NCBI GenBank assembly: GCA_965153355.1
Contig: OZ231126.1
Coordinates: forward strand, 14,818,001-14,882,000
Length of the DNA: 64,000 nucleotides
Direction of reading: 5' to 3'
Origin: Flaccisagitta enflata
Lineage: Eukaryota
Below the pieces are notes generated by a model. It worked only from the letters and a program-made list of their open reading frames with translations. It was not told the DNA's origin and did not search any database. The position numbers and the translations under genes were made by a program. Numbering within the stretch: position 1 is the stretch's first letter; each line of letters begins with the position of its first letter. Below are positions 27,099-47,164 of the stretch, piece after piece.

Positions 27099-28220
27099 CT
27101 AAACCAACAACTTGGCTCTTTGCGCTGGATCCTTTGGATTCAAGGCCTTCAACTCGCTTGAGTCACCCTTGAACCGGGAGCCGATGCTCTCTGATGAGAC
27201 AATCTTGTCTTTTCCATCATAAAGGAATAAGCTTTGATCCTTGATTGTGTCTCTGACAAATTTTTCCACTTGCTGAAATTTGTCACTTGAGCAGAAGGAG
27301 CTTTCCAAGGTGTCATCAACTGTTGTTATTTGGACCTTGATCTCCCATTCTTCAAAGTGGAATAAATGGGTGACTCTTGTGTCCAGGCTGAGGTTTGTGA
27401 TGTGTGTGGGTTCTGTCAAATGAATCTCATCTGCTAAACATGCTCCCTCTACCCCTTCGTAGAATATCTTGCCTTGGAAATTCTTGTCAAGTTGGAAGAC
27501 TTCAACCACCTTCAACCTGAGAAATTCTAACTGGTTAGAATCCTTCAAATTCTTCTTTTTCATCTCTGCCAGGTCAAGATAGAAAACCGTCTCATATCTG
27601 GTGCCATTAAGCAAGATGACGGTGACTCGCATCAAAGGCAGAGAGGGTTTCAACGACTTATCTGCATTGTACATTTTGGTTTCAGTCTCATTGAACGCTT
27701 CGGCAAAAAGACGCAAATAGGTTTTTTCAGAATGTAACAGGTCAACTTTTGCTGCAAAGCAATGCATGATCAGAGGATCAAACACAGCTCGCAGTTTCGA
27801 CCAAAATTTGTCATCCAGAACCAGGCCGGTTTCATGTGCGACAAGATTCCGCGTCACTCTCACCATCGCGGTGACGCTGCAGGAACCACTGGAACATTCT
27901 TGGTTGTATTCTGGATACTTGTCCATGACGGCCTTCAGCGGGACAGTCCACTCTCCTTTAGTAACTAAAGCGCTGTTTCTTTCCAAGAGAAGAAAACTTT
28001 TAATGTATTCTTCAGAGGACAAATAGCATTTGCACTTGCAGTCTTTTTTGGAGCCTTTGCACTTGCAGGTGTCATTGTGGGGACACTGACTAATATCATC
28101 GAAATGTTGCCTCACTGGACGCACAAAATTGGAGAACTTGTCTCGATTATTCTGACAGAAAGCTGGCAAAAATTTCAAGGTTTTGTCAAAACTCTCTCTT
28201 TCAACAGGATGTGTGGCCAT
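27099..28220 (-). CDS. KEN (IRE1/RNase L-type) ribonuclease-domain protein with Cys-rich insert and probable C-terminal ubiquitin-like domains; possibly the terminal exon of the ROCO gene
   Basis: 373-aa non-repetitive ORF. HP..SFDKTLKF, LERNSALVTKGEWTVPL, Y..SVTAMVRVTRNLVAH and DDKFWSKLRAVFDPLIMHCF are collinear with human IRE1 HPFFWSLEKQLQF, LERGGRAVVKMDW..TVPL, Y..SVRDLLRAMRNKKHH and [20 protein letters not shown] (from memory). Splice acceptor ttttcag at 28242-28248. Confidence 0.75.
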   Translation of the reverse strand: MATHPVERESFDKTLKFLPAFCQNNRDKFSNFVRPVRQHFDDISQCPHNDTCKCKGSKKDCKCKCYLSSEEYIKSFLLLERNSALVTKGEWTVPLKAVMDKYPEYNQECSSGSCSVTAMVRVTRNLVAHETGLVLDDKFWSKLRAVFDPLIMHCFAAKVDLLHSEKTYLRLFAEAFNETETKMYNADKSLKPSLPLMRVTVILLNGTRYETVFYLDLAEMKKKNLKDSNQLEFLRLKVVEVFQLDKNFQGKIFYEGVEGACLADEIHLTEPTHITNLSLDTRVTHLFHFEEWEIKVQITTVDDTLESSFCSSDKFQQVEKFVRDTIKDQSLFLYDGKDKIVSSESIGSRFKGDSSELKALNPKDPAQRAKLLV

Positions 28221-28331
28221 GACAGACTACGTTGATTCAGCCTGAAAAAAATTCAAATGCTGTCATGTATCAGACGCTCCATCGATTAGACTTGGCAAAC
28301 TGAATTGAAAATTCAAATCTTGCAGTCTCAC

Positions 28332-28360
28332 CATGACGGAACCCATAGGCGCCGTGAAAC
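28332..28360 (-). CDS. Candidate 29-nt microexon upstream of the KEN exon
   Basis: On the minus strand: catag|GTTTCACGGCGCCTATGGGTTCCGTCATG|gtgaga, then a 90-nt intron to the acceptor at 28242; coding status unproven. Confidence 0.4.
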
Positions 28361-28389
28361 CTATGTTTGAGCTCAAGATAAGAAAGGGA

Positions 28390-29520
28390 CTGGGATTAGG
28401 TTATTGAGGCTAGGATTAAATATGTAAGGCAGGGATCAGGTTGCTACCAGGATATGGTCTCTGAGGCTAGGATTAGGTCGCTTAGGCCGGGATTAGGTCA
28501 GTGAGGCTGGGATAAGGTCAGTGAGGTCAAGATAAGATCACTCGCTGAAGGCAGGATTAGGTTGTTCAGACTGGCATTAAGTTGCTGAGATTTGGATTAG
28601 GTTTCCGAGGCTGGCATTAGGTTACTGAGATTGTGATTAGATTGCTAAAACTGAAATTAGGTCCCAAAGGCTAGTATTAGGTCGCTAAGGCCACTATTAA
28701 GTTGCTGAGGCTATAAGGTCGCTAAGGCCATCATTAGTTTGCTGATGCTGGTATTAGGTCGTTGATATTGGTGTTATATTGCTGAGGCCAGGATATGGTC
28801 GCTTAGGCCAGTATTAGGTCGCTGAGGCCATCATTAGAGTGCATAGGCTTAGATTAAGTCGCTGAGGCCCCAATTAGACTGCTGAGGCCCAGATTAGGTT
28901 AGTGAGGCCCAGATTAAGTTGGTAAGTCCCAGATTAGGTGCTGAGGCTGGGATTAGGTGGCTGTGGCTTTCATGAGGCTGCTGTCGTGGGCATATTGTCA
29001 CTGACGCCGGCAGGATATAGCTGGAATGAGTTTTCTTAGGCCAGCATGAGGCCATTGAGGCCAAAAATAGCACATTGAGGCCAGGATTTTGTTGCTTATG
29101 CTGGGATTAGGTCCTTGAAGCCAGGATGAAGTGACTAGAGGCTAGGATGAGATTGCTTAGGCTAGGATTAGGTTGTTGAGGCGAGAATGTTACTGAGACT
29201 GAGACATGGTTTAGGTAAGTAAGGCCAGGATTAGATGCTGGCATTAAGTTGCTGAAATTGGGATAAAGTTGCTGAGGCTGAGATCAGGTTGCAGAGGCTG
29301 GTATTGGGTTACCGAGTTGATTGCAAGATTAAGTTGTTGAGGCTAATAAGGTCACTGAGGCTGACATTAGGTCATTGAGGCTGGGATAAGATTGCTGGGG
29401 CCTTGATTGGCTTGCTGAAGCCCGAATAAAGTTGCTGTGGCCAGGATCAGGTTGCTGGGGCTGGCGTTAAGTCGCTGAGGCCAGGATGCAGACACTGAGG
29501 TCAGGATTAGGTTGATGAGG
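28390..29520. repeat. Degenerate ~20-bp minisatellite (GGATTAGGTCGCTGAGGCTG-like)
   Basis: About 50 diverged tandem units; resembles the family B internal repeats. Confidence 0.8.
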
Positions 29521-29538
29521 CTTTAAAAAGGTCCCTGA

Positions 29539-30156
29539 CACTGCTTTCTGACAGAAGATTTGTGACAAGAATGATATCACTCCGGGTTTTTCTGCATTTT
29601 TGTGTAGGTCATAGGCATACAAATCAAGAACTGTCCAGTGGAAAATCATCCCTAGAGCGCATTTTGAAAAAAAGTCAAAAATTAATGATTTTTAGCTTCA
29701 ATATAGATGAATAACTTTGCAGGTTGGTCTGACTAATTTTTTGACAGCATATTGTCAATCCTGATCTAATTCCCTTTCATTTGATAGGTCGCACTATATG
29801 GTTTTAAAAAGAAATAACATTTTCTTTTTTTTTGCCACCGTTACAAAAATTGCAACGGTGGCCTTAAATATGAAAATTTGATTTTTTATCAAAATTATAT
29901 AGTGCGACCTATCAAATGAAAGGGAATTTTATCAGGATTAACAATATGCTATTAAAAAAAGTGTCAAACCAAACTGAAAATTTTTTTGTAAAAAATGAAG
30001 CTAAAAATCATAAATTTTTGATTTTTTTCAAAATGCGCTCTAGGGATGATTTTCCACTTAATGGTTCTTGATTTGTAAGCCTATGACCTACACAAAAATA
30101 AAGAAAAACCCGGAGTGATATCATTCTTGTCACAAATCTTCTGTCAGAAAGCAGTG
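29539..30156. mobile_element. Near-palindromic foldback MITE (~620 bp)
   Basis: CACTGCTTTCTGACAGAAGATTTGTGACAAGAATGATATCACTCCGGGTTTTTC is exactly inverted at the right end; the arms pair toward a centre CCACCGTT..AACGGTGG. Confidence 0.85.
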
Positions 30157-30234
30157 CTGAAGCCACCCTTCTATCCATGTTCCATTTCAGCTTCTCAATC
30201 ATTTCAGTCATAGAATTATAATGTAGGTTTCTTT

Positions 30235-31175
30235 TGAGCAGCGGCCCCAGAGGGGCCGATGACCTCTGATTCTACACAGGACAAATTTATCCAGTTTCCT
30301 TCCGTCCGTCTGTCTGTTCATCCCCCCCAGAAGCCTCAAAACAGGTCTCTCAGACCACAAATGAAGCTCTTTCAGACCCCAAATTAGACCTCTCAGGCAT
30401 TTTAGACCCTAAATCAGGCCACTCAGACCCAAAACTAGACCTCTCAGACCCCAAACAAGACTTCTCAGACCCCGAATCAGGTCACTCAGACCCCAAATCA
30501 GGCCACTCAGACCACAGATCAGGCCACTCAGACCACAGATCAGGCCACTCAAATCCCAAATCGGGCCACTCAGACCCAAAATTAAGCCTCTCAAACCCCA
30601 AATCAGGCCTTCAGACTCCAAATTAGACCTCACAGACGCAAATTAGACCTCTCAGACCCCAAATCAGGCCTTTCAGACCCATATTCAAGCCTTCCAGACC
30701 CCAAATCACACCTCTCAGACCAGCTTCTCAAATCCCACATTTGTCCATTACCCCCAGGCCCAATTCACTCCTCTCTGGCCTCAAATGAGGCATCCAAGAC
30801 CTCAAATAAGGCATCGCAGACCTCAAATCAGGCCCCTTGGCACCAAAATCAAGTCCTCTGGGGCCGCTGCCCCTCTCATCTCATTCCCCAAATTAGGCCT
30901 TTCAGACCCATATTCAAGCCTTCCAGACCCCAAATCACACCTCTCAAACCAGCTTCTCAAATCCCACATTTGTCCATTACCTCCAGGCCCAATTCACTCC
31001 TCTCTGGCCTCAAATGAGGCATCCAAGACCTCAAATAAGGCATCGCAGACCTCAAATCAGGTCCCTTGGCACCAAAATCAAGTCCTCTGGGGCCGCTGCC
31101 CCTCTCATCTCATTCCCACATACACAAACTTAGGGGCATCGGGTTCCGCTGACCATGAAACGCTTTTGCGACTTG
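30235..31175 (-). mobile_element. HINE-like family B element with 21-bp repeats and an internal ~229-bp tandem duplication
   Basis: GCAGCGGCCCCAGAGGGGCCGATGACC terminus, (CAGACCCCAAATCAGGCCACT)n, block 30661-30889 repeated from 30890. Confidence 0.6.
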
Positions 31176-31199
31176 TGATTATGGGGGTAAGCATAATAA

Positions 31200-31772
31200 G
31201 AATAGTCGCAAAAGCGTTAGATGGTCAGCGGTACCCGTTGCCCCTATGTGAGTGTATGTGGGTGTGAGGTGGTTAGTGGGGCAGCGGCCCCGAAGGGGCC
31301 GATGACCTATGCTGATTTTATTTGAGCCTCAAGGCTGGTATTTGAGCCTGGAGGCTTGGATTTGAGCCTGGAGGCAGGGATTTGAGCCTGGAGGCAGGGA
31401 TTTGAGCCTGGAGGCAGGGATTTGAGCTTCATGGCTGGGGTTTGAGCTTCAATGCTGGGATTTAAGCCTCGAGGCTGGGATTTGAGCCTCGAGGCTAGGA
31501 TTTGAGCCTCAAGTGTGGGATTTGGGCCAGAAAGCTGGGGTTTGAGCCTTGAAGCTGGGGTTGGGGCCTTAAGGTTGGAATTTGGGTCTCAATGCTGAAA
31601 TTTGGGCCTCTAGGCCAGAATTTGGGTTAAAGGGCTGGGATATGGCCTTGAGGTGGGATTTGGGTCCCAAGGCCGGGGGGGGGGGACGTAGAAGGAGGAG
31701 AAGAAGGTGAAGGAGAAATTTCCCCTGTGTGAAAGCATAGGTCATCGGCCCCTTCGGGGCCGCTGCCCAAAA
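31200..31772 (+). mobile_element. HINE-like family B element with perfect 35-bp subterminal/terminal inverted repeat
   Basis: GGGCAGCGGCCCCGAAGGGGCCGATGACCTATGCT at 31279-31313 is exactly inverted at 31734-31768; internal (GGATTTGAGCCTGGAGGCAG)n. Confidence 0.7.
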
Positions 31773-32018
31773 GGAATGAAGTATGAAATATGTAGTATTT
31801 TCTTTAAGAATTAAGAATACTGCTGGTTTAGCCATGGCTAGGGAGCATATTCATGTATGACTGCCAAAGAAGCAAAATCCTTACAGAACATACTATTGAT
31901 TTTGAGCAATATCCTCTGTTTGAAATATTCACATTTTAGCAAAAAGAAAAAAAAAAATAGAGATGTGCTTCTATGGCAGCTGCCCTTAATGGAGAATGAA
32001 ACATCCTTCTTTGTTTTT

Positions 32019-32198
32019 AGTCGCATGCATGCAACTCTACAACCCGCTTTGTCCGTCCGTTGGTTGGTCACACTTTACTTTTTTTTATGATTTTATTTCT
32101 TTGACCTTTCGGCTCCTGTCCAAATGGTCTGGTGACCTGAAATATGGCCCGTGCCCACCCGCACGCGACTTCAGTAGCCTCGTATCCGGCCTTGTTTT
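32019..32198 (+). mobile_element. Short HINE-like element (family A)
   Basis: 5' AGTCGCATGCATGCAACT, GTCC microsatellite, 3' GCACGCGACT..GTATCCGGCCTTGTTTT. Confidence 0.55.
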
Positions 32199-32452
32199 AT
32201 TCACTTGAACAGCTCTAGTTTTTTCCCCATTATGTTTGCCCTCATCATCACACGTCTAAACGTATCTCCCACAATCTCCAATGATCTGGTTAACAAAACA
32301 GAGATACAGAATCTAATTGGAGAAAAATTTTTTTGAAAAAGGTAAAAAATGGTTTCCTTCATTTTTTGCATGCTCTGCGCCTAAGGGTTTAGGATTCTCA
32401 CTGCAATGAGATTTGAACTTTTAAATCAATTCGCGGAGATCTATAAAATGAG

Positions 32453-34752
32453 CTATTGATCATGGTGGTAAGATAAAAGCAACATATTCTGACTCAACGT
32501 AATGACAGACAAGATGACGCTTGTTTCAAAATAATCCGCACGTGCCCCTCCAAGGGTTTCTTGATCAATCAATAGTGGAGAAATGCAGCGACTCTCTTTT
32601 GGGTGAAACACGTTCATGATTTTGATCGCCAAATTACTCGGGAAGCAGTACTTTGGATCGCAATTCAATCTCTTCAACCTTTTCCTCTTGCTTCTGGTGT
32701 CATCCTCTAGTGAGTCACCATGAATGGTGGGTTGTGGGTCGTAGTCTCCATGCTCACAATCTGGGTCAAATGAAGGACAAACGAGCTGACAATCCTCATC
32801 TTCCAGGTCAACATTTGAAGTAACCTCATTCAAGATGATCCATGCCAATTCAGGCAAGATTTTGGCATCTGCGAGTGTGACCATGAGATTCAACAGATTA
32901 TCATCTGGGGATTGAGGTTTGTAAACAGCAACTTCAAAGTGACCCACCTTTGCCAGAATGGCATCTTCTCTTGTTCGCAGAATCAGCTTTCCATCCATAA
33001 TTGAAGCCAGCCTTTGCATGACCGATGTTGCTACAGCGAAATTCTTACTCATTGTTCTCTTGCATATCTTTGTCTCTGAGGTAAAGCATACAGTAAGCTC
33101 AAAAAAGGATTTCAACCCCAGGGTGGTTTTGATAAAGGTCTCTACATCCTTATCATCTGCAGTCTTAAAGATCAGATGTGGAATGAAGTACATTTTCATT
33201 CCAAGTACATTCTCATTCATAGGAACGATGATGTTCAAATGAGAGAGAATGAAAAGGAGAGATTCCATTAACAACTCCGACTCAACATTGGATGAACTGA
33301 AATCAAGATCATCAAATCCAATGCTCAAACCTTCGGCACTTCCTTTCAACTCTCTGTGAAGATGTACAAACATTCCTTTGATCAAAGGCAAAGGCAGTTG
33401 GCCATCTTCGTACGCTTGGATAAGCGTATCTTTATCACTGGGTTTCAGCTGGTGAAACTCTGCAAAATTCCCAAGCAGCAATTGCATGGCATGGTAGAAA
33501 AGACTCTTCATAACAACAGCCAACTTTTCAATTCTATGAAAAATGACAGTGCTACCATCGTGCCATATTACGCTCCCTCTTACGCTGAGAGCTTTCAGCA
33601 TCTCAATGACGTCGTAGTCATTTAGTGATGGGGCAAAGGCGCGTAGGTCATCAACTTTGACATATGGTTTATCTTGGTTCTGATTCAAGAGCCAGTCAGT
33701 GGCTTCTTTCCAACTCTCTTGAAGCATGACTGTTGGCAAGTTGGAAATAGCCCTTCCTAAATTGGACTCAAATGTATCAAAACCCTTTAGGTCGTGAGAA
33801 CTGACAAAAGATATAGAGTCAGTGTTAAATACCGGAGGATTTTCCACTTTGCCGACTTGTTTACTCAGCTTTCTTTCTAAACCCTGTTTTTGATCTTCTA
33901 ATTTGGCCAATTCATCAGGATTGTCCGTTGAAGCTTCGATGTCCTTTTCAACCTCTGCCAGTTTTTGCTGCAGCTGTTTTTTTCTATCCTCACGGATTTT
34001 CAGGGGTTTCCCAATTCTCGAATCTAAGAAAGCCAGCAGTTGAGCTTTCATCTCCTTAATTCGTGACGGCCTCTCCTTCTCGTCGATCAAGTCAATCTTA
34101 GACACAACAAACAAGAAATTTGGACTACTGGCTCCATCGAGGATCTTTTCAACCCAGATCCAAGCACTTTCATAGAGTGAATCATCGTCTATAAAATCAT
34201 CTGGGTTCAGGAGGCATATATAGAGGCCATGATGTCGGCACAAGACAGCAAGTGCTGACTCGTACTCTTTGTGACCTCCCAAGTCAATGATTTTCAATAT
34301 CAAATCTTTGAGGTATGCTGGATAAACATCAAAGACCTGTGTCCGATCTTCCAATTTGATTTCTTTTGCCGAGACAATCTTGCCTGCCAGACACTGCCCA
34401 AAGGATGTCTTACCTGCTTCTTGTCTGCCAATGAGCATGACAGTCACATCTTTTGCATCAATCATGGAGTTGGGGTAATTGGTCAAATATTTGATGACGG
34501 CGCATTTTCCCTCATCGAAAACATGCTTGGGAGGGTAAATCAATGGGTTATTGTTCAGTATGGACAGTCTGCCACTCTCATCCAGAAATTTCAACATCTC
34601 CTTTTGGGGCAACTCTGTGATTTTGTTGTTTTGTAAATCGGGGTAAAACCAAGGTCGCAGAATTGAAGGATGTATTGTTTTGATGGAGCAATCAAATGCC
34701 CGCAATGTTGAAAGCCGCGATGAAGGTGGAATGGCAGGCAAAAACTTCAACT
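32453..34752 (-). CDS. ROCO protein, large LRR-ROC(GTPase)-COR exon
   Basis: Acceptor ttttcag at 34753. LRR end and NNPLIYPP..EG..AV..YL cap; P-loop GRQEAGKTS, switch I RTQVFDV, DLGGHKEY, SKID, FVSS; COR-like WKEATDWL..LKALSVRGSVIW..IFH. The 3' end may splice out near 32494 or 32542 instead of stopping at 32453. Confidence 0.9.
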
Positions 34753-35152
34753 CTGAAAATGAGAAAAAAAAAAAAAATTCAAATATGGGTGATCATGTCC
34801 CCCTTTGACTTTCTGTTGACACTTTTCTGTCACTCAGCTGGTCAGTTTTTTCGTCCTCAAATTCAATCAGCACCTACAATGTTAGTCTCATGATTTTTGA
34901 GTGCCCCACCTTGTCATTTTTAGGCTTTTGAGAGTGATTTTTGCATTTCTGCCCCAACTAGCACACTCGATGAGTGCCCATGACTGGTTTTGCTATGTAT
35001 TTAGTCTTACTTTTTCTTGTCTTTGGTGCTTGACAAGTAAATGTCATTGACATCAGTCCAGTTGTAGTTTCAGTCTGTGTAGTCATAACCTGAAATGTGA
35101 TTTTCGAAGTAAATTCCATGCTTTCATTGCTACAACGTGAACACCATCTTAC

Positions 35153-35287
35153 CTTTGTTGCCGTCAAGATGTACGTATTTCAATGGACCATGAAACAGAT
35201 TTGTTGGAAGTGATTCCAAGGAACAGTTTCTTGCACTCAATGCTTTTAGAGACGAGGTGGAGTTAATTGATGGAATGGTCTTTAATC
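35153..35287 (-). CDS. ROCO LRR cassette exon G (135 nt, phase 1-1)
   Basis: GLKTIPSINSTSSLKALSARNCSLESLPTNLFHGPLKYVHLDGNK; cag/gtaag boundaries. Confidence 0.9.
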
Positions 35288-35331
35288 CTGTAAATAAGAG
35301 GACAAAATGATCATCATCATCATCATCGTCG

Positions 35332-35394
<63 letters not shown>

Positions 35395-35678
35395 CCATCA
35401 TTCATCATCAATACATCATCATCGTGGCAACTATGTAAGGAGGGGGGTGTCTGAAAGTGATTGCTAAAAATAAAGGTCTATAACACATTGTTTCGAGTAA
35501 CATGAAATCAAATGCAGGTGGGCAGGGGCAGTGATGTAAAATCACTCTCAAACGACAAAAATACTGAGCATCATTGCCCGTGCCCTCCTGCAATGGACCA
35601 CTAATCAATCGTGCATCCAGCCTTGTCGATATCTTCTTTCATCAATACCAGTTTTGTGGTAAAGCCATCATTTCACAC

Positions 35679-35813
35679 CTTTGTTTTCATCAAGATTAAC
35701 ATTTTCCAATTTGAAATGAAATAGATTTGTTGGAAGAGATTCAAGAGAGCATTTTTTTGCTGTCAGATTCTTGAGTTTAGATGTCGAGGTAAGAGGCGGA
35801 AGAGACCGTAATC
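35679..35813 (-). CDS. ROCO LRR cassette exon F (135 nt, phase 1-1)
   Basis: GLRSLPPLTSTSKLKNLTAKKCSLESLPTNLFHFKLENVNLDENK; cag/gtgtga boundaries. Confidence 0.9.
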
Positions 35814-35902
35814 CTGTAAAGGATGAAAAAAAAATGAGATAAATTGTTTTACTCAAGATTGCTGAGAAAATTGGCTGCACAGTCACATCCTTCAAGTTTT
35901 AC

Positions 35903-36037
35903 CTTCATTTTCATCAAGACGAACATCCTCCAACTGAAGATGGAACAAATTTGTTGGAAGTGACTCAAGAGAGCATTTCTCAGCCATAAGTTTCTTGAGT
36001 TGCGACGATGAAGAAAGATATGGTAGAGACTGTAATC
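35903..36037 (-). CDS. ROCO LRR cassette exon E (135 nt, phase 1-1)
   Basis: GLQSLPYLSSSSQLKKLMAEKCSLESLPTNLFHLQLEDVRLDENE; cag/gtaaaa boundaries. Confidence 0.9.
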
Positions 36038-36125
36038 CTGCAATCGACAACATTAAACGACAAGATTATCATAACTGCAACTACTAATGTCATATTGCCA
36101 TGAATAGTGTAAACAGCTACCTCAC

Positions 36126-36260
36126 CTTCATTTTCATTAAGACAAATTTCCTCCAACTGAAAGTGGAATAAATTTGTTGGAAGTGATTCCAGAGAACATT
36201 TTTCTGCCATCAGTTTTTTGAGTTGTGATGATGAAGAAAGATGTGGAAGAGACTTTAATT
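36126..36260 (-). CDS. ROCO LRR cassette exon D (135 nt, phase 1-1)
   Basis: ELKSLPHLSSSSQLKKLMAEKCSLESLPTNLFHFQLEEICLNENE; cag/gtgagg boundaries. Confidence 0.9.
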
Positions 36261-36315
36261 CTGGAAAAAGAAGGAAGTAAAGGAGATTATCATCAAATTA
36301 TGTCAAATTGCCAAG

Positions 36316-38045
36316 AGCTCACAGCCGCCCAGAGCGTGAAGCTTGTTGACCTAAAACAATTGGCACCAACTTGGATGGTTTCAGAACCCTGATGGTGCAT
36401 ATAACACATATCTAAGAAAAATGAAATCTGTTTTAGGTAGGGGTGAGTCGAGCAATTAATTGCTCGACGATTAATCGAGGAAAGATTTTGCATTGCTTGC
36501 TCGAGGAAAGCAAAAATCCTAGGGGGGAAAAATTTTGTTCTAACAAACCAACCAAAGGATGGACAGACATGACCTATCATAGATTTGCAGGAACGCACAT
36601 AAAAATACAATAGGACAAAAAATATTTTTGACAGACTGATGGATTGACGGAGCTCATAGATGGACTGATAAACCCAAAAAATACTGTTGATTAATCAAAC
36701 AAGCCCAAACTAGCAACGATGCGTCCAGACTGTGTCTCTGCGTATATTGATCATGTGACACATATGGATTGACAGATGGACAAACAGACAGATGGAACAA
36801 CAAGATTAGTATTGGAGGCTCTCAAATCATGTTGTTCTCGCAGTAGATTCAGTGTAGGATCTCGTCGTGGCCGAAAACGGTCAAAAACCGCGGTTTTTGC
36901 ACAGGCGTAACGGACCGACGGACGGACCGACGGACGGACCGACGGACGGACGGACGGATGGACGGACTGACCAACGGACGGACGGACGGACAAACCCTCT
37001 TATAGAGATGCGAGGACGCATCTAAAAATGGTAAATCATAAAGATACTTCAGGGACTCAGTTTTAGAACTTAGTTACAAATATCATCTGATATCAAGCGT
37101 CATCTGACAAATAAAACCTTTTCGCCTTAATCCGTAGTGGCTTTTTTTGGGATGTCGGATTTAGCAAGTAAGCAAGTAAGCTGCCTAGGATCATTTTACG
37201 CGTGACTGCTTACTATCCTCAGGAAAAACTTTAAAAAAAAATGCTTCGTAACTTGTGATCATCTGAGACAAATAATGTTACTTTATTTTGTTCATAAAAC
37301 TGAAAAAAAAAAATAGTATTAATTTGTTCGTGGCCTACTTTGAAATATGTTTTTCTATAAAGTCTAAAAGAAAAACAAGTTCCATTGCGTTACCATTTTT
37401 TTCTTTTTAGAACTATTAGGTGAAAAAGTTATTTAAAATCACTTATCGAACGCTGGAAAAAAATCCTTGTAAATGCTTGAGGATTCCTCGAGGAATTAGG
37501 ATTTTGGGCGATTTATCATCGAGGAAAAATATCAAATCCTCGACTCAGCCCTAGTTTTAGGGCTCTTTTTAAAATATTTGAAAAAAAAAAAATTTTTATC
37601 ATAACTTTGTGATTGAGTTTTTCATTGATTTTTAGTGAAGTTCTGATCTGAAATAGTGGCTTCCGGTTTGTCATGCTATACACTTTTGCAAAAGAGATAA
37701 AAAGTTAATCTTTCCAATTAAATATTGTTTTGTATAGTATTATGACCAAAAAATAACTTTTTATTTCTTTTGCAATAGTATATAGTGCGACGTATCAAAC
37801 TAACCGGAAACTATTATTTGAGATCAAATCCGCACTTAAATTCATTGAAAAAACAAATCACAAAGAGTTATGGTAAAAAATGCAGTAAAAAAGTGCTATT
37901 TTTTTTAATATCTTAAAAAGCGCCTTTAAAAAGATTTCATTTCTCTCAGATATGTGTTCTATGCACCATTAGGGTCATGAAACCACTTGAATTGGCGCCA
38001 ACCATTTCAGGTCAACTAGTGTCACGCTCTGAGGGGCTGTGAGCT
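36316..38045. mobile_element. Long-TIR MITE in LRR intron C-D, host of nested insertions
   Basis: AGCTCACAGCC..GAGCGTGA..GGTGCAT..AACACATATCT at left is inverted at 37923-38045. Confidence 0.7.
36438..37553. mobile_element. hAT-type non-autonomous element with 8-bp TSD
   Basis: TIRs TAGGGGTGAGTCGAG / CTCGACTCAGCCCTA (1 mismatch), flanked by GTTTTAGG at 36430-36437 and 37554-37561; contains a (GGAC)n HINE-like insert at ~36695-37027. Confidence 0.8.
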
Positions 38046-38071
38046 ATACAGTACCATCCATCAAACCTCAC

Positions 38072-38206
38072 CTCTATTACTATCAAGACAAACATCCTCC
38101 AACCGAAAGTGGAACAAATTTGTTGGAAGTGACTGTAGAGAGCAATCTTTAGCACTCAGATGTTTGAGTAGTGATGATGAGGAAAGAGGTGGCAGAGACT
38201 TCAATT
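38072..38206 (-). CDS. ROCO LRR cassette exon C (135 nt, phase 1-1)
   Basis: ELKSLPPLSSSSLLKHLSAKDCSLQSLPTNLFHFRLEDVCLDSNR; cag/gtgagg boundaries. Confidence 0.9.
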
Positions 38207-38446
38207 CTGGAATTGAAGGAGGTAAATAGGATTATCTTTGTCATCACTACTAGAGATGCCCAAGCGGTTGATATTCTTGTTGCTTCCAACGCTTCCTCTT
38301 CTGCCTCTATCTTGCAGTTCAAATACTAGTAGTAGTACCTATCCCACCCGCCGAATTGGAAACGGTCAATTGTTTCCAGATCCCTAACTTACTAACAATG
38401 TAAAGTGGCCAAAAGTAGCCGCATAGTCACACCCTTCAATCTTCAC

Positions 38447-38581
38447 CTTTGTTTTTATCAAGACAAGCATTTTCCAACCGAAAGTGGAACAAATTTGTTG
38501 GAAGTGACTCAAGAGAGCATTCTTTAGCACTCAGATGCTTGAGTTGTGATGATGATGAAAGAGGCGGTAGGGACTTTAAGC
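38447..38581 (-). CDS. ROCO LRR cassette exon B (135 nt, phase 1-1)
   Basis: GLKSLPPLSSSSQLKHLSAKECSLESLPTNLFHFRLENACLDKNK; cag/gtgaag boundaries. Confidence 0.9.
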
Positions 38582-38893
38582 CTGAAAATGATGATCGTCA
38601 ATGATATTGTTGTTACTTTTATATGAATCAATGTCAAGATTAGCGTACCAACAATTTACACAAAATCATAGAAAAGTTCTCTATCAAAGGGATCTAGCTC
38701 TAAATCATGTATAAAGAAAACATATAACCATAGGACCCCTGTAAACTATGGCCGTCACCCCCTCATATCCCATAGAAAGTGTATCAGCAGGGTTCAACCA
38801 AGTGCCCAAGCAGGCAAGCATTGCTTGTAGGCAGCTAGCTTATTCCACAACGACCTCTTTAATATACAAAAAATTTTTTTTGCCAAATCTGAC

Positions 38894-39028
38894 CTTCATT
38901 TCCGTTCAAGTTAATTTCCTCCAGTTTGCTGTTAAACAAATTTGCAGGAAGTGAATCCAATGAGCAGTTTTCTAGCTTCAATATCTTCAGCGAGCATGAA
39001 GACGGCAAAGGCGGAAGTTCCTTCAATC
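38894..39028 (-). CDS. ROCO LRR cassette exon A (135 nt, phase 1-1), the most 5' exon found
   Basis: LKELPPLPSSCSLKILKLENCSLDSLPANLFNSKLEEINLNGNE; tag/gtcaga boundaries; the start exon is not visible. Confidence 0.9.
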
Positions 39029-39065
39029 CTAAGAGGATGAATTTTTCATTCACTAGAATCAACTG

Positions 39066-39115
<50 letters not shown>

Positions 39116-39165
39116 CTGTCAACATCATCATCATCATCATCGTTATTGTCACTTATACCATTTTC

Positions 39166-39198
<33 letters not shown>

Positions 39199-39200
<2 letters not shown>

Positions 39201-39989
39201 TGACATTCTTCACATTCCCCACCATATCCAGGTCAAGAAGCGCTCAATCGGATGCATTCGACTCCGCGGATCCCGAAGAGGAGGAGAGGCTCTCTCGCCG
39301 TCGAAGATTCCAAGATGGCGTCTGCTCGACTGCAGAGTGGAGGAAACTTAGGAAAAGGAGAGAGATCTTCGATCGACGGAGGAAGTGGAGGAACGCGCGC
39401 GCGCGCCGAAAGCGCTGACTTCCGGTTGAGGATTGATGGACTGTATCTCCTCAACCGCTTAGAGGAGAATAGACTTCGACCCCTCTAACGAATTCCCATG
39501 ACGCGACGATTCCATTGATCATTGTTCCATTGCTGCCAAATAATTTCAAATCTCGTGATGCTTTGATTAAATTTGTTATTTATTTCTAGGTTAAGTAAAA
39601 GTAGCTTCCCTGACTCTCTTACTGACATTCGACTTCACAATCTCAGTTAAAGACTCGATTTTGATGCTTTTTCCCCGACTTCCCTGCCCTGCGCCTAGAT
39701 TGGAAACCGTTCGACAACATCCGTGTAAGTCCTTGACCTTTTACCTTTTTGGCGCTTTTACAGAAGTATCCTTCATTGATGTACAGAGTTTGTCCTAACC
39801 TTTTTCTTTTTTCTCTATCCATCAGGATTCCACAAATAGACTGATTTTGCGGACAACTTGACCGCTCATCTCAACAATTCGTTCTAAGCGGGTGTACGTT
39901 CCAAATCATTAGCGCAGCTACGCAGTGGAGTCAGTTCTCGCGATTACGCATCAGGAGCTTGATAAGAAATCAGACGTAAAACGCTCTCA
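39199..39989 (+). repeat. 5' LTR
   Basis: TG..GACATTCTTCACATTCCCC ... GACGTAAAACGCTCTCA, a direct repeat of 50902-51693. Confidence 0.9.
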
Positions 39990-40033
39990 ATTCGTGGAAT
40001 CAAAAACCATCAACGATCCACGCAACGTCAACG

Positions 40034-43000
40034 ATGTCGACCGCCAACAACAACGCCAACACCGACGCGACGTCAATGCCGCCACCTTCGCTGCCCAATC
40101 AACGCAGGAAGGCCTTTCGACCAACCGACTGCGTGTCCATCGTTTCCGACTCGTCCGTCTATGCGGGCGCAATGGACCCCGTAGCCACGACGCTTCGCGG
40201 ATTACGAAAGTCTCTACGCAACACGCGCAACGCCTACATGTCGGCGTTGAAAACCGCCGATACCCTTAACGATGACGATATTTTGGACTTTTACCAAGAT
40301 ATGGACTGCCTTCGAAAGGAAGTGTGGTTAGCGGCGTGGCGATTGGTCAATACGACAAAGACTTACGCACAAGCAGAATCGACGAACAACCCCGACAAAG
40401 CGGCGTCATTGTTGTCGACAGCCGAAAGCTCATTGACGGAGGTACGGAAACTGTGGGACGCATAATGCTTCCACGACAAAAATACTTTTGCGTCGCATCT
40501 GTTCCTGCCAACCTACCACGACATCCACGATGAGTCACCAGAGACTGGAGCAAAACGCGCTCTCGAGATGACGATGGGGTCGTCGACGCATTTCGTCCAA
40601 TCCCTTTCACGACGACGTAAATCAACGCCGAACGTGACCGGCGACGATGAAGACGCGGGAGAGGACGACTTGCCCGTCGGCACGGAAGCAGCGAATCTCA
40701 ATGCAGCGGAGCAACGACACAACGCGCCGCCCCACACGCCAGGCGCGTTAGAAGACGCCGAAGAGATACGCATAAACTTTGAACCTCCAACACCGGTGAC
40801 GCCGGCGAAATCACGTTTTTTGTCGGCCAGAGACGATGAAGACGACGACGCCAGCGACGCAATGGAAACGTCATGGCCGAACGCTGACGCCAACCTCCCT
40901 CCAGGCGCCGTCGGCGGCGCCCCTCCCACGCAAGACCTTCTCAACATGTTACAGCAGTCGATTGCCGACGGCGACAGAGTCGCTCAAGGTGACGCGATGG
41001 TGCAAGTCGTCGGACGTCTCGTCGACGACGTTAACCAAGTTCGACGCTCGATGGCGAGAGAAGCACGCGCAAACACGAGATTCCGTCTCAGCTCGCGCTC
41101 TGTATCTCAACAACGGGAAGAGAACGCCCGGCAGATGACGGCAAACATCGCATTAAACGCAGCCGTTAATGCCCGGACAGACGCGGTCACGGCCGGAATC
41201 GACGAGAGGAAAAGAAGGGAGGAGGAGGAGAGGAGGAAGAAGGAGAAAGAGGAGGAGGAGGAAAGACAACGCATCCACGCTGAAGAAGTGAGAAGGAGGG
41301 CAGAGGAGACAAGAAAGGGGCAGGAGGAGAAAAGGAGGACAAACTTGAAGAACAAGATGGCACAGGAGAAAAGAGAGAAAGAGGAGAAAGAAGAAAAGAA
41401 AAGAAAAGAAGCGGAAAGGAAAGCAGAGGAGGAGAGAAGGAAGGCGGTGGCTAAGAGAGACGCGGAAGAAAGGAAGAAAATGGAGGAGAAGAAAAGACGC
41501 GAAGAAAAGAAAAAGGAGGAAGAGAAGAAAAGGAAAGAAGAGGAGGAGAGGAAGAAGAGAGAAGCGCAAAAGAAAAGTCAGCAAAGACAACTGCCATCCA
41601 AGACGCCGCCCCCAACCGCACGTGAACACCCTCTCCACGAGCAATTGCGCACGAGACAAGATGCAGCGGAGCAAGAAAAGAATGCGATGGATCACGCGGA
41701 CGCAATGGCAAGAGTCCAACAACTGATCAGCGATCTCAACCTGGAAGACAGCGTTGTTTTGCAGACACGTGTCCAGCTGCGCAAATCGACGCCGCCATCA
41801 CCAAGCTCACCCGTCATCGTCCACCAAATCGCGAGTGGTCCTCCAGCTCCGCAAGCATCCCGCAACACACGCGGAAGTCAACGCCCTCTGGTCGACGACG
41901 TCTTCGACGGCGAAGGGTTTGAGCGCGTCGACAGACGGAAGTCGAGAAAGACGCCGCCCCCAACGCCGTCGCCTCCTAGATATCAAAGATGTCAAACCGG
42001 AAGTGACTCCGCGCGAAACGGCCTCGCGCATTCGCAATCCTTCGCCGAGAGGATGAACGCGGTTTCCTTCATCGACAACCCGATTGCCTACAACGCCCGC
42101 GTCAGAGCAAAGGACGTGGGATTGAGGGAGATGCGCGCAGCACGCCCAAGAGAAGCGTATGGATACCTCGAGCCAATCGACTATATCATCGCCAAATCCA
42201 AATTTGAAAATGCCGCCTCTAACATTGAGCTAGACGAAATTGACAAAGTGACTGAATTGGCCAACGTCTTCGCGAATCCAGTGAAGGAAATTATCGACGG
42301 TCAACAACTCATCATCAAGGCGCACAATATGCGCCGCGTCTACAGCACCTTGTGGAAACGCCTGGACGAGATGTTCAACACGAGCGTCAATCCGTTCCAA
42401 TCGGCCGTCGACAGCATCTGCAGGAAAGGAAAGGTTCCAGAAAACGACATGAAAGCCCATCAAGCGTTGATTGGCACGTTGTACAAACTGGAAAGCGTCG
42501 CAGAACTGCTGAATGCAACGGGGGAGTGTGATCGTGACGTCCACATCCGCCGCATCATCAACGCGAGGGTGCCACATATCTCGACGGACTATTGGAAAGC
42601 AAGCGCTCGTGAACAAGCTCGCCACGGCACGGCTTACGGCTTCCAAGAACTCATCGGGGAGGTGAAGCATTGGGTGTCGTACAACAACCTCAAGGAACCG
42701 ACACGCATGGCGCCGAAACCGACGAAGGTTGCAGCGACGGCAGTCGGTCCGGCGACCTTCAAGGAACAGCTCGTCAACTCACCGCCGAAGCAACAACCCA
42801 ACGACATCTGCAATATTTGTGGAGGTCGCCACAACTCCCATTTGTGTCATGTTTTGGAAGCCATCCCATCAGCAGAGGATCGTGTGAAGAAGTTGGCTGA
42901 GAAACGTCTATGCTTTCATTGTTTCTGCCCAAACCATTCAGCGCGGGACTGCAAAGACAAGCCGACGTGCTCATCCTGCAATAAGAGACACGCAACCCTG

Positions 43001-43156
43001 CTGCACGATCGCCAATTCAAGACGAGAGGAAATGGAGAAGGAATCACGTTTAAGACGCCAAATCCTGCCGCATTAGCTGCAGCCGCCGCCGCTCCAAAAC
43101 CGTTCCTCCAGCGCCCCCAAGCAGCTCGTCGACGGACGATCTGTGCATCTGGATGA
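40034..43156 (+). CDS. gag: BEL/Pao Gag (one in-frame TAA at 40463-40465)
   Basis: ORFs 40034-40465 and 40568-43156 share a frame; KE-rich coiled coil; CNICGGRHNSHLC, CFHCFCPNHSARDC and CSSCNKRHATLLH knuckles typical of BEL Gag. Confidence 0.85.
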
Positions 43157-43194
43157 AGGAAGAGTGATGGAGGTGACTCGCTGCCACCTCCGCG

Positions 43195-46100
43195 ATGAGG
43201 ACGGTAGTTGCGGAGGATGATGTCACGCGACCGATTGTCCCTGTAAAGATCACCAACGTCGGACGGCCGTTCCACCGCAGTGTTGGGATGATTGACAGCA
43301 GAGCGGATCGTGACGTTTTATCGCTTCAAATCGTTAAAAAATTAGACTTTACCAACCGAAAAGATGCTGATGCGCGTGCATACGGTCAATTGTGGTGGTG
43401 GAGGAGAAAGTCTTAGCGCCTCTTATCCTTTCATCGATTGACGAGGAATACAATGTCCACATCAGTAACGCATTAACGGGAGAATTGTTGACGGGTGAAG
43501 CGGATATTGCTCCATGCCAACGCGACTTCACCAACCAGTCTCATCTTCGCAACATTCCATTTCCAAAAGCAAATGGTCCTGTCCACTTGATCATCGGCGC
43601 CGCCCATTACGATGCGACGATGCCTGTGGAGGCAAGAAGAGAGGTCCATCGGGATCTTTGACAGCCTTCAGATGTGTTTTTGGATGGACTGTAGCAGGAA
43701 AGAGTGGACGAAGATCTGATGATACCGCTGTCATTAACGCAATCCATGTGGATAACGCGCATTGAGCAAATCTCTCGACCGCATGTTCTACCATGACTTC
43801 GCCATTGTATCGGAGGAAGAAATGGGCCAGTCTGAAGAGAATCGTCGCGCTGTAAAAATGGGTGATGAGATTATATACTTTCACGAGAATTTCCAGAAAT
43901 ATGTCAGCCGCATGTAAGACAGAGAGAAAATCGTCAATTATCAAGTCTGTAAAATGCACGCAATGTATGACGACAAAGGACAAAAAGCTCTCCGATATAA
44001 AACTCTCAACGACCATGACTCAAGGAATGTTGTCTTCAAAGAAATGGACAAATCGTGGACACGGTGTGGCGATAGAGATTGATCCGAAGAACGACGATGC
44101 AGGCATCTCATCGCCACGCTGGTATTTACCCATCCATGTGGTGGAGGAAAGGAAACAAAACGTTGATTTGTCACGATGGACTGCTGAGCATCATGGTATT
44201 TGCCTCAATGAGCTACTGACGGGAGGCCCTATTATCATGAACGTGCTGACTGGAAGTTCTTATGAAATTGGCCATAAAATCGTGTCTTAAGGATGACCTG
44301 ATATTGCTGCGTTATAATGTCCGCGCCCATCCTGGTGACGTGCGATGATTGAGACATATATGTGGCTCTCACTGACAAAGCATGAGAGAAGGTGGTCGTG
44401 ATGCCTTTCTTGGCGCACATTTTTGAATGGTCTCATCAAGTCTCGTCACCAGCTATGTTTTACGCCATCACGCAGAAAAGATCAAACCAGACTTCCCGAA
44501 AATGTCTAATAAATGTTGAGACACATGCCTCTTCTACGCTGATGACGGTTTGTGGTGCGGATTCGAAGCTGGATGAGTGCACTGGTAGTTGAAGCGAAGA
44601 TCTCATCGCTTACGAAGAGCGGCGATTCACCTTAACGGCGGAAGTCGAACGCCGTGGAAGTGATGGACAGGATCTCAATGTCGCGGTCGACTTGAACCCA
44701 ACCGAGGAGCCAAATAAAGGTCTGGGGTCCAGTCGAAGGCTGCCGACGGACTGTTTCTGTATCTTCAGATGCGATCCAGAAGCGTGCAAGAGGGTAGCAA
44801 CAACTCCTCGCGAGTTGGTCTCCATGCAAGCCGACAACTATGATCCACTTGGATTCACAGCGCCTCGCGCCCTTGAAGGGAGAAGGTGTCTTCAGTTGAC
44901 GAGAGCTTCCGAGAAAGGATGGGATTCGACGATGGAGGAGGCGTTGATCAAACGCTTCACCAAATGGTACTCTGCGACTCCATTGCTGATCCAAATTGAA
45001 ATTCCGCGCCATATTGAGTGGGGCATTGTGAAGGCCGGTCGACGAGAAGTTCACACCTTCTGTGACGCCGCCATCCCTGGATTTGGAGTAGTGGGCTATT
45101 GGTTGGTGGAAGATGAGGATGGAACAATCCGCGTTACCATCTTGTGCGCAAATGCCCACGTCGTCCCTCTTGATGCGTCAAAAGCGTCGCACCACAATTC
45201 GGTGCCGAGGTTAGAAATGACAGCGGCAGAGAAAGCGGTGAAACTCAAACTTTTCATCAAGAGAACCATTCCAAAGGTGACCGAGGATATGGTGACGCTC
45301 TGGTCAGATTCAGAGGCTGTGCTGAAGATGATTTTCGACCATAAGTCTAAACGCCCTAGCTTCTTTGCAAACCGACTTTCAAAAATCCATAGCGGCTCAA
45401 GTGATTCTCAATGGAGATGGGTTAATACGGACAACAACCCGCGGACTATTGTCGCGGGGTATTGACGCCGGCGACAAGGACAAATGGGACATTTTCCATT
45501 TCGGTCCAAAGTTTCTCTACCTCCCCAAATCTGAGTGGCCGACAATGAATATTGCGACGGCGCCGGAGGCATCAATCAACGCCGTCGCGACAGGAGCGGT
45601 GGAAGAAGAGGAGGGGGAAAAGGAAAAGGAAATGTTTGCCTATGTAGTGGCTGCCCGTCGCCAGGAGTGGGTGGCGAAATTGCGTTTGATCGCCGTGATT
45701 GTGAAGTGTGCGCAGCGATGGAGACAGAAGGTGAAGGCAAAGACTAGAGCAGCGGCGACGACGCTGCAAAATCCCTACTCTGTATCTATGGCTGAATTGT
45801 ACGACGCTCAACGCCGCTTGATCAACGCAATCCAGTTCAAACATTTCCACTGAGAGATAAATTGGAAGTTGAAGGCAGAGGAAAACGGGCTGCTGATCAA
45901 CGACGTCATGCCAAAGTTATTCGCAAGACCACGCCATCACAATCCGGTTGTCGCATTTATAGCGGGACGACGTAGGAAGCAGACTTGTGAACGCGGACAT
46001 TGGCCATGACGAGAAATACCCGATGATTCTCCCTTCGAAGGATCCGAACGTCGCTTCTCTGATTCGCCACGTCCACTATCAGGATCTCCACGCGGGCCCA

Positions 46101-47164
46101 AAACACGTCTTATGCCAACTGCGACGCTTCGTGTGGATTCTTCGAGGTCTCCAAGCGGTGAAGACAGTTATCCACCATTGCGTCACGTGCCAAAGGAACT
46201 TCAAAGATCCTATGAAGCAACAAATGGCGCCTCTTCCTCAACGACGGCTCATTCCAACAGCGCCCTTCGAGGAGGTGGGACTTGACTGTATGGGTCACTT
46301 CCTGGTGAAACTGAACGGCAGGGCGGATCATAAAGTCTGGGCAGTGGTATTTACCTGCATGGTTTCGAGGGTGGTGCATGTGGAGGTGTTGTTTAAAATG
46401 GACACAGAGGCAATGATCAACGCCATCATTCGATTCGCGGCGAGACGACAAACGGTGCGTCGGTTCATCTCTGACTGTGGCACTAACCTGGTTGGTGCAA
46501 ATCGCTGCCATGAGGAGATGCAGTCGTGAACGTTGCTGCCGACGGTGGCTCCTGCAGCAGCATGGACCCAATGACTTGCCCCTGGGACTCCCATTACGTA
46601 TGCGTATGGAAAGTGGTCGTATCTCCTTTTCAAAAACATTTGGCATCCATTACTTCCGGTCACGTGCTCCATTACGACGTCTTCCAAACGGCAGTGATCG
46701 AGGTGGAAGGAATTCTCAACCGCCGACCTCTCACGCCTTTGAGCGACGACCCTAGCGATACATCGGCGCTGAGGCCGGTGAATATCTTGCATCCGTCTAC
46801 GTTCTCACACTCGTCGGCAGCGATTCTCCCTCCAGAGACCGGAAACGACGCCGTGGGAACGAGATGCCGATGGAGAAACGCACAGGCCCGTGTCGACGCC
46901 TTCTGGAAGGTATGGCGCGCCGAATACCTTCAGTTGCTGCACGCAAGGAGCAAATGGACAAACTCGGAAGTTAACATCAAAAAAGATGCATTGGTCATCA
47001 TCGTTGACGAGACGCTTCATCGGCATCAGTGGTCTTTGGGACGCATCGTCGAAGTGGAAGGATCTGGTGATCATGTCCGGAAGGCACAGATCCTAGGCCC
47101 CGACGGCAAGATCGTCCTCAAGGATCGGTCGAAGATCGTCCGATTGGAGCTGGATTCAGATTAA
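43195..47164 (+). pseudogene. pol: BEL/Pao pol, frameshifted (protease, RT, RNase H, integrase)
   Basis: MIDSRADR protease-like motif; YLPIHVV, CLNELL.GGP and FYADD (44532-44546) of RT; HTFCDA, PRLEM, WSDS, FFANR, WRWV..NP of RNase H; H..HAG..CVTC, GLDCMG, SDCGTN, EGILNRRPL, FWKVWRAEYL of integrase; multiple frameshifts and stops. Confidence 0.9.

Follow-up and report, generated by a model that had tools for sequence, protein, structure and literature searches.

We analysed a 64-kb stretch of the Flaccisagitta enflata genome (assembly GCA_965153355.1, contig OZ231126.1, positions 14,818,001–14,882,000 of the forward strand; hereafter the window, numbered from its first base) and found on its minus strand what is best read as a single gene, encoding leucine-rich repeats (LRRs), a Roc GTPase domain, a conserved post-Roc region, a KEN-like helical domain and two ubiquitin-like (Ubl) domains. 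The copy in the window is split by a DNA transposon with terminal inverted repeats, and for the intact family we infer a mechanism like that of nucleotide-binding leucine-rich-repeat (NLR) receptors. We place the probability of this reading at about 0.72.

A DNA transposon splits a large coding exon

Two stop-to-stop open reading frames (ORFs) stand out on the minus strand of the window, one of 779 amino acids (P0002, 32453–34792) and one of 375 codons (P0001, 27099–28226, with its stop codon at 27099–27101). The upstream ORF loses homology to its relatives immediately after a 9-base word, and the identical 9 bases recur just before the downstream ORF regains homology. The interval between the two halves is laid out as follows.

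32502–32510, minus strand: target-site duplication, copy 1 (9 bp)
28228–32501, no strand assigned: non-autonomous DNA transposon (4274 bp) with 13-nt terminal inverted repeats and subterminal inverted repeats
28219–28227, minus strand: target-site duplication, copy 2 (9 bp, identical to copy 1)

The terminal repeats, 13 nt long and identical at 12 of 13 positions, lie in inverted orientation at the two ends of the element. The 64 kb contain this pattern at exactly two places, and at least two matches were obtained in none of 100 shuffled sequences; a 26-nt subterminal inverted repeat agrees with the same boundaries. The interior contains tandem arrays of 20–21-nt units and nested inverted repeats. 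None of the nine internal ORFs matched a Pfam family and no transposase gene was found among them, indicating that the element is non-autonomous. We take the 9-bp duplication to suggest a Mutator- or Merlin-like element, and make no assignment to a superfamily. Thus, 28228–32501 is a DNA transposon with terminal inverted repeats that inserted into a coding exon and is flanked by a 9-bp duplication.

The initial annotation had described this interval as ~4.2 kb of mostly repeats and a candidate microexon; a reading of it as an intron plus a microexon does not survive the finding of terminal inverted repeats and a 9-bp duplication. The microexon was rejected because the two ORF halves join directly and are collinear once the element is removed. 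A plain spliceosomal intron was likewise rejected as the primary reading, given the terminal repeats and the duplication, and because no exact GT..AG solution exists.

Removing 28228–32501 together with one copy of the 9-bp repeat in silico yielded a single ORF of 1136 codons, with its sole stop at the end. Everything from the last LRRs onward was formerly one exon of ~3.4 kb. The element sits where the post-Roc region gives way to the KEN-like domain. Here the reading frame enters the element, runs for 15 codons and stops at 32453–32455, so the most likely product of this allele is an LRR-Roc protein cut short, without the RNase-like and ubiquitin-like tail. Because the element-free ORF is collinear with its relatives, the allele in the window is probably broken, and we regard it as probably a natural knock-out or a young pseudogene.

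Relatives carry both halves in a single frame

An every-protein search with P0001 returned 33 relatives at E ≤ 1e-3. Three of these, ~1120–1190 amino acids long, have the P0001-like part at the C-terminus, preceded by LRR-Roc sequence matching P0002. Longer proteins were also searched with a profile, which brought in P0041 (1071 amino acids), P0042 and P0043, and further look-ups added P0037, P0039 and P0044. Both halves are present in a single frame in nine metagenome-derived ORFs of 903–1187 amino acids (P0005, P0037, P0006, P0019, P0039, P0041, P0042, P0043 and P0044; the count takes in P0042, which lacks the entire Roc domain). Five shorter sequences (P0018, P0021, P0024, P0025 and P0017) join the region upstream of the KEN-like domain to that domain. 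The nine ORFs bear out the earlier proposal that the ROCO-type part and the KEN-like part belong to one protein.

The full-length relatives are unnamed ORFs on short ENA or JGI metagenome contigs of 3.4–4.8 kb. The ORFs of several of them (e.g. P0005, P0006 and P0042) start at about the position where the large exon of the window starts, so these relatives look like single genomic exons. The element-free ORF of 1136 codons is 76.4% identical to P0041, the closest of the nine, over 1070 residues. Taken separately, the upstream half is 75.9% and the downstream half 77.4% identical, and the alignment is free of gaps within 40 amino acids of the junction. Identity to seven other full-length relatives ranges from 35 to 69%. 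Other searches returned little: a word-based homologue search with the window ORF, at similar lengths, found one fragment only, a protein atlas search with the whole window ORF found no match, and a scan of metagenome contigs with the 375-amino-acid ORF found no relative.

P0042 (903 amino acids) differs from the other members. It shares 71% identity with P0041 across 68% of its length, and an internal deletion after the NPF-x-x-PP linker removes the whole Roc domain and part of the region that follows. The KEN-like and Ubl parts are retained, and the C-terminal tail is different and longer. P0042 is possibly a degenerate copy, or else a variant without the GTPase.

Seven LRR cassette exons precede the large exon

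Upstream of the P0002 ORF lie seven LRR cassettes on the minus strand, as had been annotated; they are members of one repeat family (D3). Each is exactly 135 nt long, preceded by AG and followed by GT, in phase 1-1 (7/7), and one cassette encodes ~45 amino acids, or ~2 LRR units. The most upstream cassette starts at 39028. The P0002 ORF has an AG acceptor of its own at 34753–34754, in the same phase as the cassettes.

38894–39028, minus strand: LRR cassette exon 1 (135 nt, phase 1-1; AG acceptor, GT donor and LRR peptide)
38447–38581, minus strand: LRR cassette exon 2 (135 nt; repeat family and splice borders)
38072–38206, minus strand: LRR cassette exon 3 (135 nt; repeat family and splice borders)
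36126–36260, minus strand: LRR cassette exon 4 (135 nt; repeat family and splice borders)
35903–36037, minus strand: LRR cassette exon 5 (135 nt; repeat family and splice borders)
35679–35813, minus strand: LRR cassette exon 6 (135 nt; repeat family and splice borders)
35153–35287, minus strand: LRR cassette exon 7 (135 nt; repeat family and splice borders)
32502–34752, minus strand: 5' part of the large terminal exon (last LRRs, Roc GTPase and ~430 amino acids of conserved post-Roc sequence, presumed COR)

Because the cassettes are equal in size and phase, their duplication or skipping could leave the reading frame intact.

Trinucleotide microsatellites at 35280–35454 and 39022–39208 directly precede cassette exons 7 and 1, respectively, and read as poly-Asp or poly-Met in frame. 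The ATG-rich run ahead of cassette exon 1 is in frame with that exon and may contain a start codon.

A Roc GTPase is followed by a conserved region and by no kinase

The Roc domain was identified in the upstream half of the large exon.

34091–34441, minus strand: Roc GTPase domain (residues 118–234 of P0002; PF08477, 24.9 bits; GxxxxGKT, DxxG and SKxD motifs)

The PF08477 match of the window copy (E 2.5e-5, 24.9 bits) lies under the 27-bit cut-off, and four relatives score over it (P0044, 32.9 bits; P0037, 30.7; P0005, 30.4; P0006, 28.2). The P-loop, DxxG and [ST]KxD motifs that mark the Roc domain of ROCO proteins are intact. A profile of the family searched against the PDB matched the Roco structures 4wnr_A (5.7e-7), 6hlu_A (9.8e-6), 8r4b_A (1.1e-5) and 3dpu_A (5.8e-5), which are crystal structures from M. 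barkeri and C. tepidum (PMC6337361). These matches span the linker between the LRRs and Roc as well as the G domain, and they end at the Roc domain. Directly C-terminal to Roc is a conserved region of ~430 amino acids that we presume, from its position, to be COR.

No kinase or pseudokinase family appeared in any Pfam scan of the window ORFs and their relatives, in agreement with the initial annotation, which saw no kinase. The domain that follows the post-Roc region thus stands without the kinase or pseudokinase that precedes the KEN domain in IRE1 and RNase L.

The downstream half encodes a KEN/HEPN-like domain and two ubiquitin folds

Four features were placed in the downstream half.

27657–28218, minus strand: KEN/HEPN-like all-alpha domain (together with bases 28219–28227 of target-site duplication copy 2, residues 1–190 of P0001)
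27834–27851, minus strand: RNLVAH, an Rx4-6H motif read as R126-N127-x3-H131 (conservation in 13 sequences)
27387–27644, minus strand: ubiquitin-like domain 1 (~residues 195–280; by fold)
27132–27380, minus strand: ubiquitin-like domain 2 (~residues 283–365; by fold; without C-terminal Gly-Gly)

PF06479 (Ribonuc_2-5A) is the Pfam family matched by the largest number of members, at E ≤ 1 in 10 of 40 (7/34 plus 3/6 further relatives), and all of its matches fall on one stretch of the profile, ~positions 22–89 of 127. P0015 scores 24.5 bits against a gathering score of 23.3 and is the sole member over the cut-off. In an alignment of 13 sequences, which share 27–42% identity with the window copy, H131 never varies and conservation is at least 90% at R126, N127, E82, N84, T89, G91, W93, S117 and V118. 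In their spacing, the conserved W, the S-V pair and R-N-x3-H also appear to resemble IRE1. R126, N127 and H131 supply the arginine, following polar residue and histidine of the Rx4-6H motif, which are described as catalytic in KEN and HEPN domains in the text of Anantharaman et al. (2013) (PMC3710099).

We modelled the C-terminal 375 residues with AlphaFold2 from a 34-sequence alignment and obtained a mean predicted local distance difference test (pLDDT) score of 90.4 and a predicted template modelling (pTM) score of 0.87; a model of P0001 from the single sequence (pLDDT 35.7) was not usable. Residues 1–190 are all helical, with pLDDT mostly >85, so that an all-alpha domain carries the Rx4-6H motif, as in HEPN domains. 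Three helices follow the motif, as expected of the permuted KEN version of HEPN, the KEN domain being described as a circularly permuted HEPN (PMC3710099). Language-model neighbours of residues 20–190 were clusters with HEPN families (scores 0.90–0.91), which we use as a lead only. A homodimer prediction for the KEN-like domain gave a score of 0.00, with the alignment unused and the partner's own fold uncertain, and so speaks neither for nor against binding. From the motif, the profile matches and the modelled fold, residues 1–190 are very probably a HEPN domain and probably one of the KEN type specifically. The putative assignment as an RNase has moderate support, from sequence and predicted structure.

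A Cys/Lys-rich insert at residues 48–68 of P0001 (28023–28085, minus strand) varies in length among the relatives and was modelled with pLDDT 59–75. It may form a small metal-binding knuckle.

The remainder of the model forms two consecutive beta-grasp ubiquitin folds, with pLDDT 92–98 over most of residues 195–365, and the ubiquitin-like domains first noted in this exon are thus borne out by fold. Foldseek found 111 matches in the PDB at E ≤ 0.001. Among the 43 matches listed from ranks 1–50, almost all are di-ubiquitin, ISG15 or the Ubl domains of OASL, and the top matches are linear di-ubiquitin, ISG15 and the tandem Ubl of chicken OASL (probability 1.00, E 5e-7 to 4e-5). At the sequence level there is a weak polyubiquitin profile match (5vix_A, E 0.068). 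The C-terminal Gly-Gly needed for conjugation is absent from the end of the window ORF, and the ends of the relatives are variable.

Evidence against the reading and alternative explanations

Several observations, gathered in this section, limit or weigh against the reading of a single gene that ends in an RNase. The RNA data, which speak neither for nor against it, comprised four of five listed runs: one poly(A) run, of which ~6% was read, and three metatranscriptome contig sets, whose small word shares with the window are no evidence of habitat. Depth was zero or near-zero over both coding parts, with no joint between them, and the reads and contigs fell on repeats at 29.5–32.6 kb and 36.5–37.3 kb. 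One perfect 171-nt contig, at 34546–34716, comes from this organism or a very close relative and is silent on splicing. The start codon and 5' end of the gene were not found in the window. The relatives are ORF calls on short metagenome contigs and not validated transcripts. Of the LRR-ROC-COR exon in the initial annotation, the LRRs and Roc stand, the latter with its Pfam match of 24.9 bits; the COR was not detected, with a Pfam COR match in 0/14 sequences bearing the Roc or COR region.

The repeats themselves were well covered. The stretches 29538–32575, in the element, and 36482–37349, in the intron between cassettes 3 and 4, reached depths of hundreds to thousands in the three marine metatranscriptome contig sets and were also covered in the poly(A) run. 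These repeat families are both abundant and transcribed.

The transposon might now act as an intron, with cryptic splice sites in or near its ends producing a nearly complete LRR-Roc-KEN-Ubl protein whose linker is slightly altered. Exact GT-AG excision of the element is not possible. There are 57 frame-preserving splices with canonical dinucleotides (GT-AG, GC-AG or AT-AC) within 90 nt of its ends, one of which adds a single codon (donor 32506, acceptor 28227), so cryptic splicing could take place. A GTCAGA donor inside the terminal repeat (32493) has the donor hexamer of cassette exon 1, both ORF halves are still stop-free, and transposon-derived introns are known in other eukaryotes. However, no splice pair restores the original reading exactly, and offsets within the 9-bp repeat give no GT..AG. 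Apart from the GTCAGA case, the nearby donors are unlike the GTRAGT-like donors of the seven cassette exons, and the first AG after the polypyrimidine tract (28241–28243) runs into a stop in the required frame. No RNA joint across the element was seen, at nil coverage. We consider splicing of the element quite unlikely and favour an allele interrupted by the transposon.

Three shorter relatives raise a second alternative. P0004 (366 amino acids, 2196-bp contig) begins at the same boundary as P0001, and P0013 (373 amino acids, 2963 bp) and P0007 (390 amino acids, 1555 bp) begin inside the KEN-like domain, all on contigs long enough to carry more than the ORF. These starts would allow for stand-alone KEN-Ubl forms, introns or disrupted copies in some paralogues. 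In the window, the insertion could have made two working genes, a truncated LRR-Roc gene and a stand-alone KEN-like/di-Ubl gene that starts from the ATG at 28218–28220 and is driven by a promoter inside the transposon. The third codon of the downstream ORF is indeed an ATG, in a G-3/G+4 context, P0004 starts at the same position, and kinase-less KEN domains are described as having expanded independently in Oikopleura and monocots (PMC3710099). Against this, RNA coverage of the downstream ORF is nil, and P0004 is possibly a truncated ORF call on a short contig. The ATG also lies within the region of the target-site duplication, and in P0041 and P0042, both close relatives, Ile stands in its place, indicating that it is not a conserved start. 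Two working genes are therefore very unlikely, and a broken copy of one gene remains our preferred reading.

The remaining points concern the identity of the helical domain. The initial annotation had proposed a KEN-like RNase with RNLVAH at 27834–27851 and named PF06479 as the profile to be sought in this ORF. The motif is there, and 10/40 members match the profile, one of them over the cut-off; the window ORF of 375 amino acids has no Pfam match at E ≤ 10 and no PDB sequence match. The other nine PF06479 matches are under the cut-off, at 12.8–22.5 bits. Searched against the PDB, a profile of the KEN-like region matched 0 chains at E ≤ 10, two single members matched none either, and the Foldseek matches listed from ranks 1–50 cover the ubiquitin part only, the helical domain giving no superposition. 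With the PDB searches empty, a single Pfam model, matched mostly under its cut-off, carries the link to IRE1 and RNase L. Other HEPN models also match weakly (HEPN_Swt1, E 0.13; pEK499_p136, E 0.17 and 0.027), and clusters of HEPN_DZIP3 and Swt1 are among the language-model neighbours. The domain might accordingly belong to another HEPN family, or be a non-catalytic helical adaptor with an RNxxxH-like motif. We find this unlikely, because PF06479 is the most frequent family and is always matched on the same profile stretch, because R, N and H are kept across sequences only 27–42% identical, and because three more helices come after the motif, as they do in the permuted KEN fold (PMC3710099). 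Moreover, a metal-independent RNase would remain the prediction whichever HEPN family applied. A KEN-type domain is thus the assignment we retain for what follows.

Repeats and neighbouring sequence

Besides the locus itself, the 64-kb window holds GT-AG introns, microsatellites and one long terminal repeat (LTR) retrotransposon, which mark it as eukaryotic. The retrotransposon (~12.5 kb, 39202–51696, plus strand) is found on the upstream side of the first LRR cassette exon, 174 bp away from it, and is bounded by LTRs of ~790 bp, 92–98% identical (39202–39992 and 50908–51696). Its ORFs, in separate frames or as separate ORFs, encode a Pao-type peptidase, an integrase and DUF5641, making it a BEL/Pao-type element. 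Such elements are not known outside animals, and this neighbour supports an animal origin of the locus. It may sit within a 5' intron or the promoter of the LRR-Roc gene. Further along, ORF pieces at 52217–52525 and 55498–55854 (plus strand) resemble by eye the C-terminal nucleotide-binding part of an ABC (ABCB-type) transporter; they had no Pfam match at E ≤ 0.001 and may be the end of a neighbouring gene.

A proposed sensor-switch-nuclease mechanism

For the intact family, we propose that the LRRs would sense a ligand and that the Roc/post-Roc module would shift between monomer and dimer with its nucleotide state. HEPN and KEN RNases are described as requiring two juxtaposed Rx4-6H motifs (PMC3710099). 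Because the KEN-like domain lies directly behind the post-Roc region, dimerisation of that module would set two RNase domains side by side, and the dimer could thereby form a composite, metal-independent RNase site. The Roc/post-Roc module would, in effect, take the role that the dimerising kinase or pseudokinase has in IRE1 and RNase L. The tandem ubiquitin-like domains might serve as a built-in signalling or docking tag, a second output as in OASL and ISG15. Our data show the layout of the locus, the fusion in relatives, the transposon, the ubiquitin folds and the conserved motif; COR identity, dimerisation, RNase activity and a role in immunity belong to the proposal.

The most far-reaching version of this proposal is that the family constitutes undescribed cytosolic immune sensors of animals, in which dimerisation controlled by Roc, in place of the (pseudo)kinase of IRE1 and RNase L or the STAND ATPase of NLRs, fires a KEN-type RNase, an ISG15/OASL-like di-ubiquitin module provides the second output and the LRR sensor is diversified via cassette exons, with the window holding a transposon knock-out allele. 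Taken in full, we regard this version as tentative and rather doubtful. If it were true, the KEN RNase would have become joined to at least two dimerising switches of different kinds, a kinase and a Roc-type GTPase, and the bacterial immunity layout of LRRs, AP-GTPase and variable effector would extend to animals. ROCO GTPases, best known from LRRK2, would gain a direct and easily assayed enzymatic read-out in RNA cleavage, which could help to settle how nucleotide state and dimerisation are coupled in these proteins. For comparisons between populations or of function, the allele split by the transposon would offer a loss-of-function variant already made by nature.

Comparison with known systems

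Our literature search, which covered the running text of papers, found no paper joining Roc/COR with KEN or HEPN in one eukaryotic protein, and in a review of Roco proteins (PMC6337361) the words 'nuclease', 'RNase' and 'ubiquitin' occur 0 times. The initial suggestion that this architecture is undescribed for animal ROCOs thus agrees with the literature covered.

The closest parallels for the helical domain are the KEN RNases of IRE1 and RNase L. The likeness lies in an all-alpha domain with R-N-x3-H, for which PF06479 is the best-matching family across the group, and in its place directly C-terminal to a module known to dimerise. Ankyrin repeats form the N-terminal ligand-binding region of RNase L, a position occupied here by the LRRs. 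In contrast to both proteins, the family has a Roc GTPase and post-Roc region in place of the kinase or pseudokinase, and it has no ankyrin repeats and no lumenal or transmembrane part. It further differs in a Cys-rich insert in the N-terminal part of the domain and in its two ubiquitin-like domains, and the window copy falls under Pfam detection.

With ROCO proteins (LRRK2, DAPK1 and MFHAS1, and the Roco proteins of C. tepidum and M. barkeri) the family shares the LRRs, an NPL-x-x-PP linker and a Roc GTPase with G1, G3 and G4 motifs. Unlike in those proteins, COR is undetected by Pfam or PDB profile, the output is an RNase-like HEPN domain with a di-Ubl and not a kinase, death or WD40 domain, and the LRRs derive from equal-sized cassette exons.

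The bacterial AP-GTPase/COR conflict systems are similar in having LRRs that evolve rapidly at the N-terminus, a Roc-type GTPase and, at the C-terminus, an effector that varies; their layout also includes COR, and they are described as sensor-switch-effector immunity (Kaur et al., 2021; PMC8195603). They differ in being prokaryotic, and the effectors named in the text of that paper are TIR, DRHyd, caspase, trypsin, FGS, GT4 and EADs and not HEPN/KEN, although its figures or source data might list one; nor does that text describe a ubiquitin-like tail (PMC8195603).

Among animal proteins, the fusions of DZIP3-type HEPN domains with NACHT, LRR, Death or CARD domains are comparable in joining a HEPN RNase effector to lineage-expanded, NLR-like proteins of marine invertebrates, as set out in the text of Anantharaman et al. 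(2013; PMC3710099). Those proteins switch by a STAND ATPase and this family by a Roc GTPase, and in Pfam scans the HEPN domain here matches the KEN model, not DZIP3.

For the C-terminal tail, the parallel is the tandem Ubl of ISG15 and OASL, with two consecutive beta-grasp domains that match human, mouse and sheep ISG15 and the di-Ubl of chicken OASL (7sbi_A, E 4.2e-6) at a probability of 1.00. Identity is only 10–14%, there is no C-terminal LRGG or Gly-Gly here, and the Ubl pair is fused behind an RNase-like and not an OAS-like domain.

Against this background, what appears to be new, judged from sequence, is the presence of LRR-Roc, a KEN/HEPN-like domain and two Ubl domains in one animal protein, with precedents in the bacterial layout of LRRs, GTPase and effector, in fusions of HEPN with NACHT and LRRs, and in expansions of kinase-less KEN domains.

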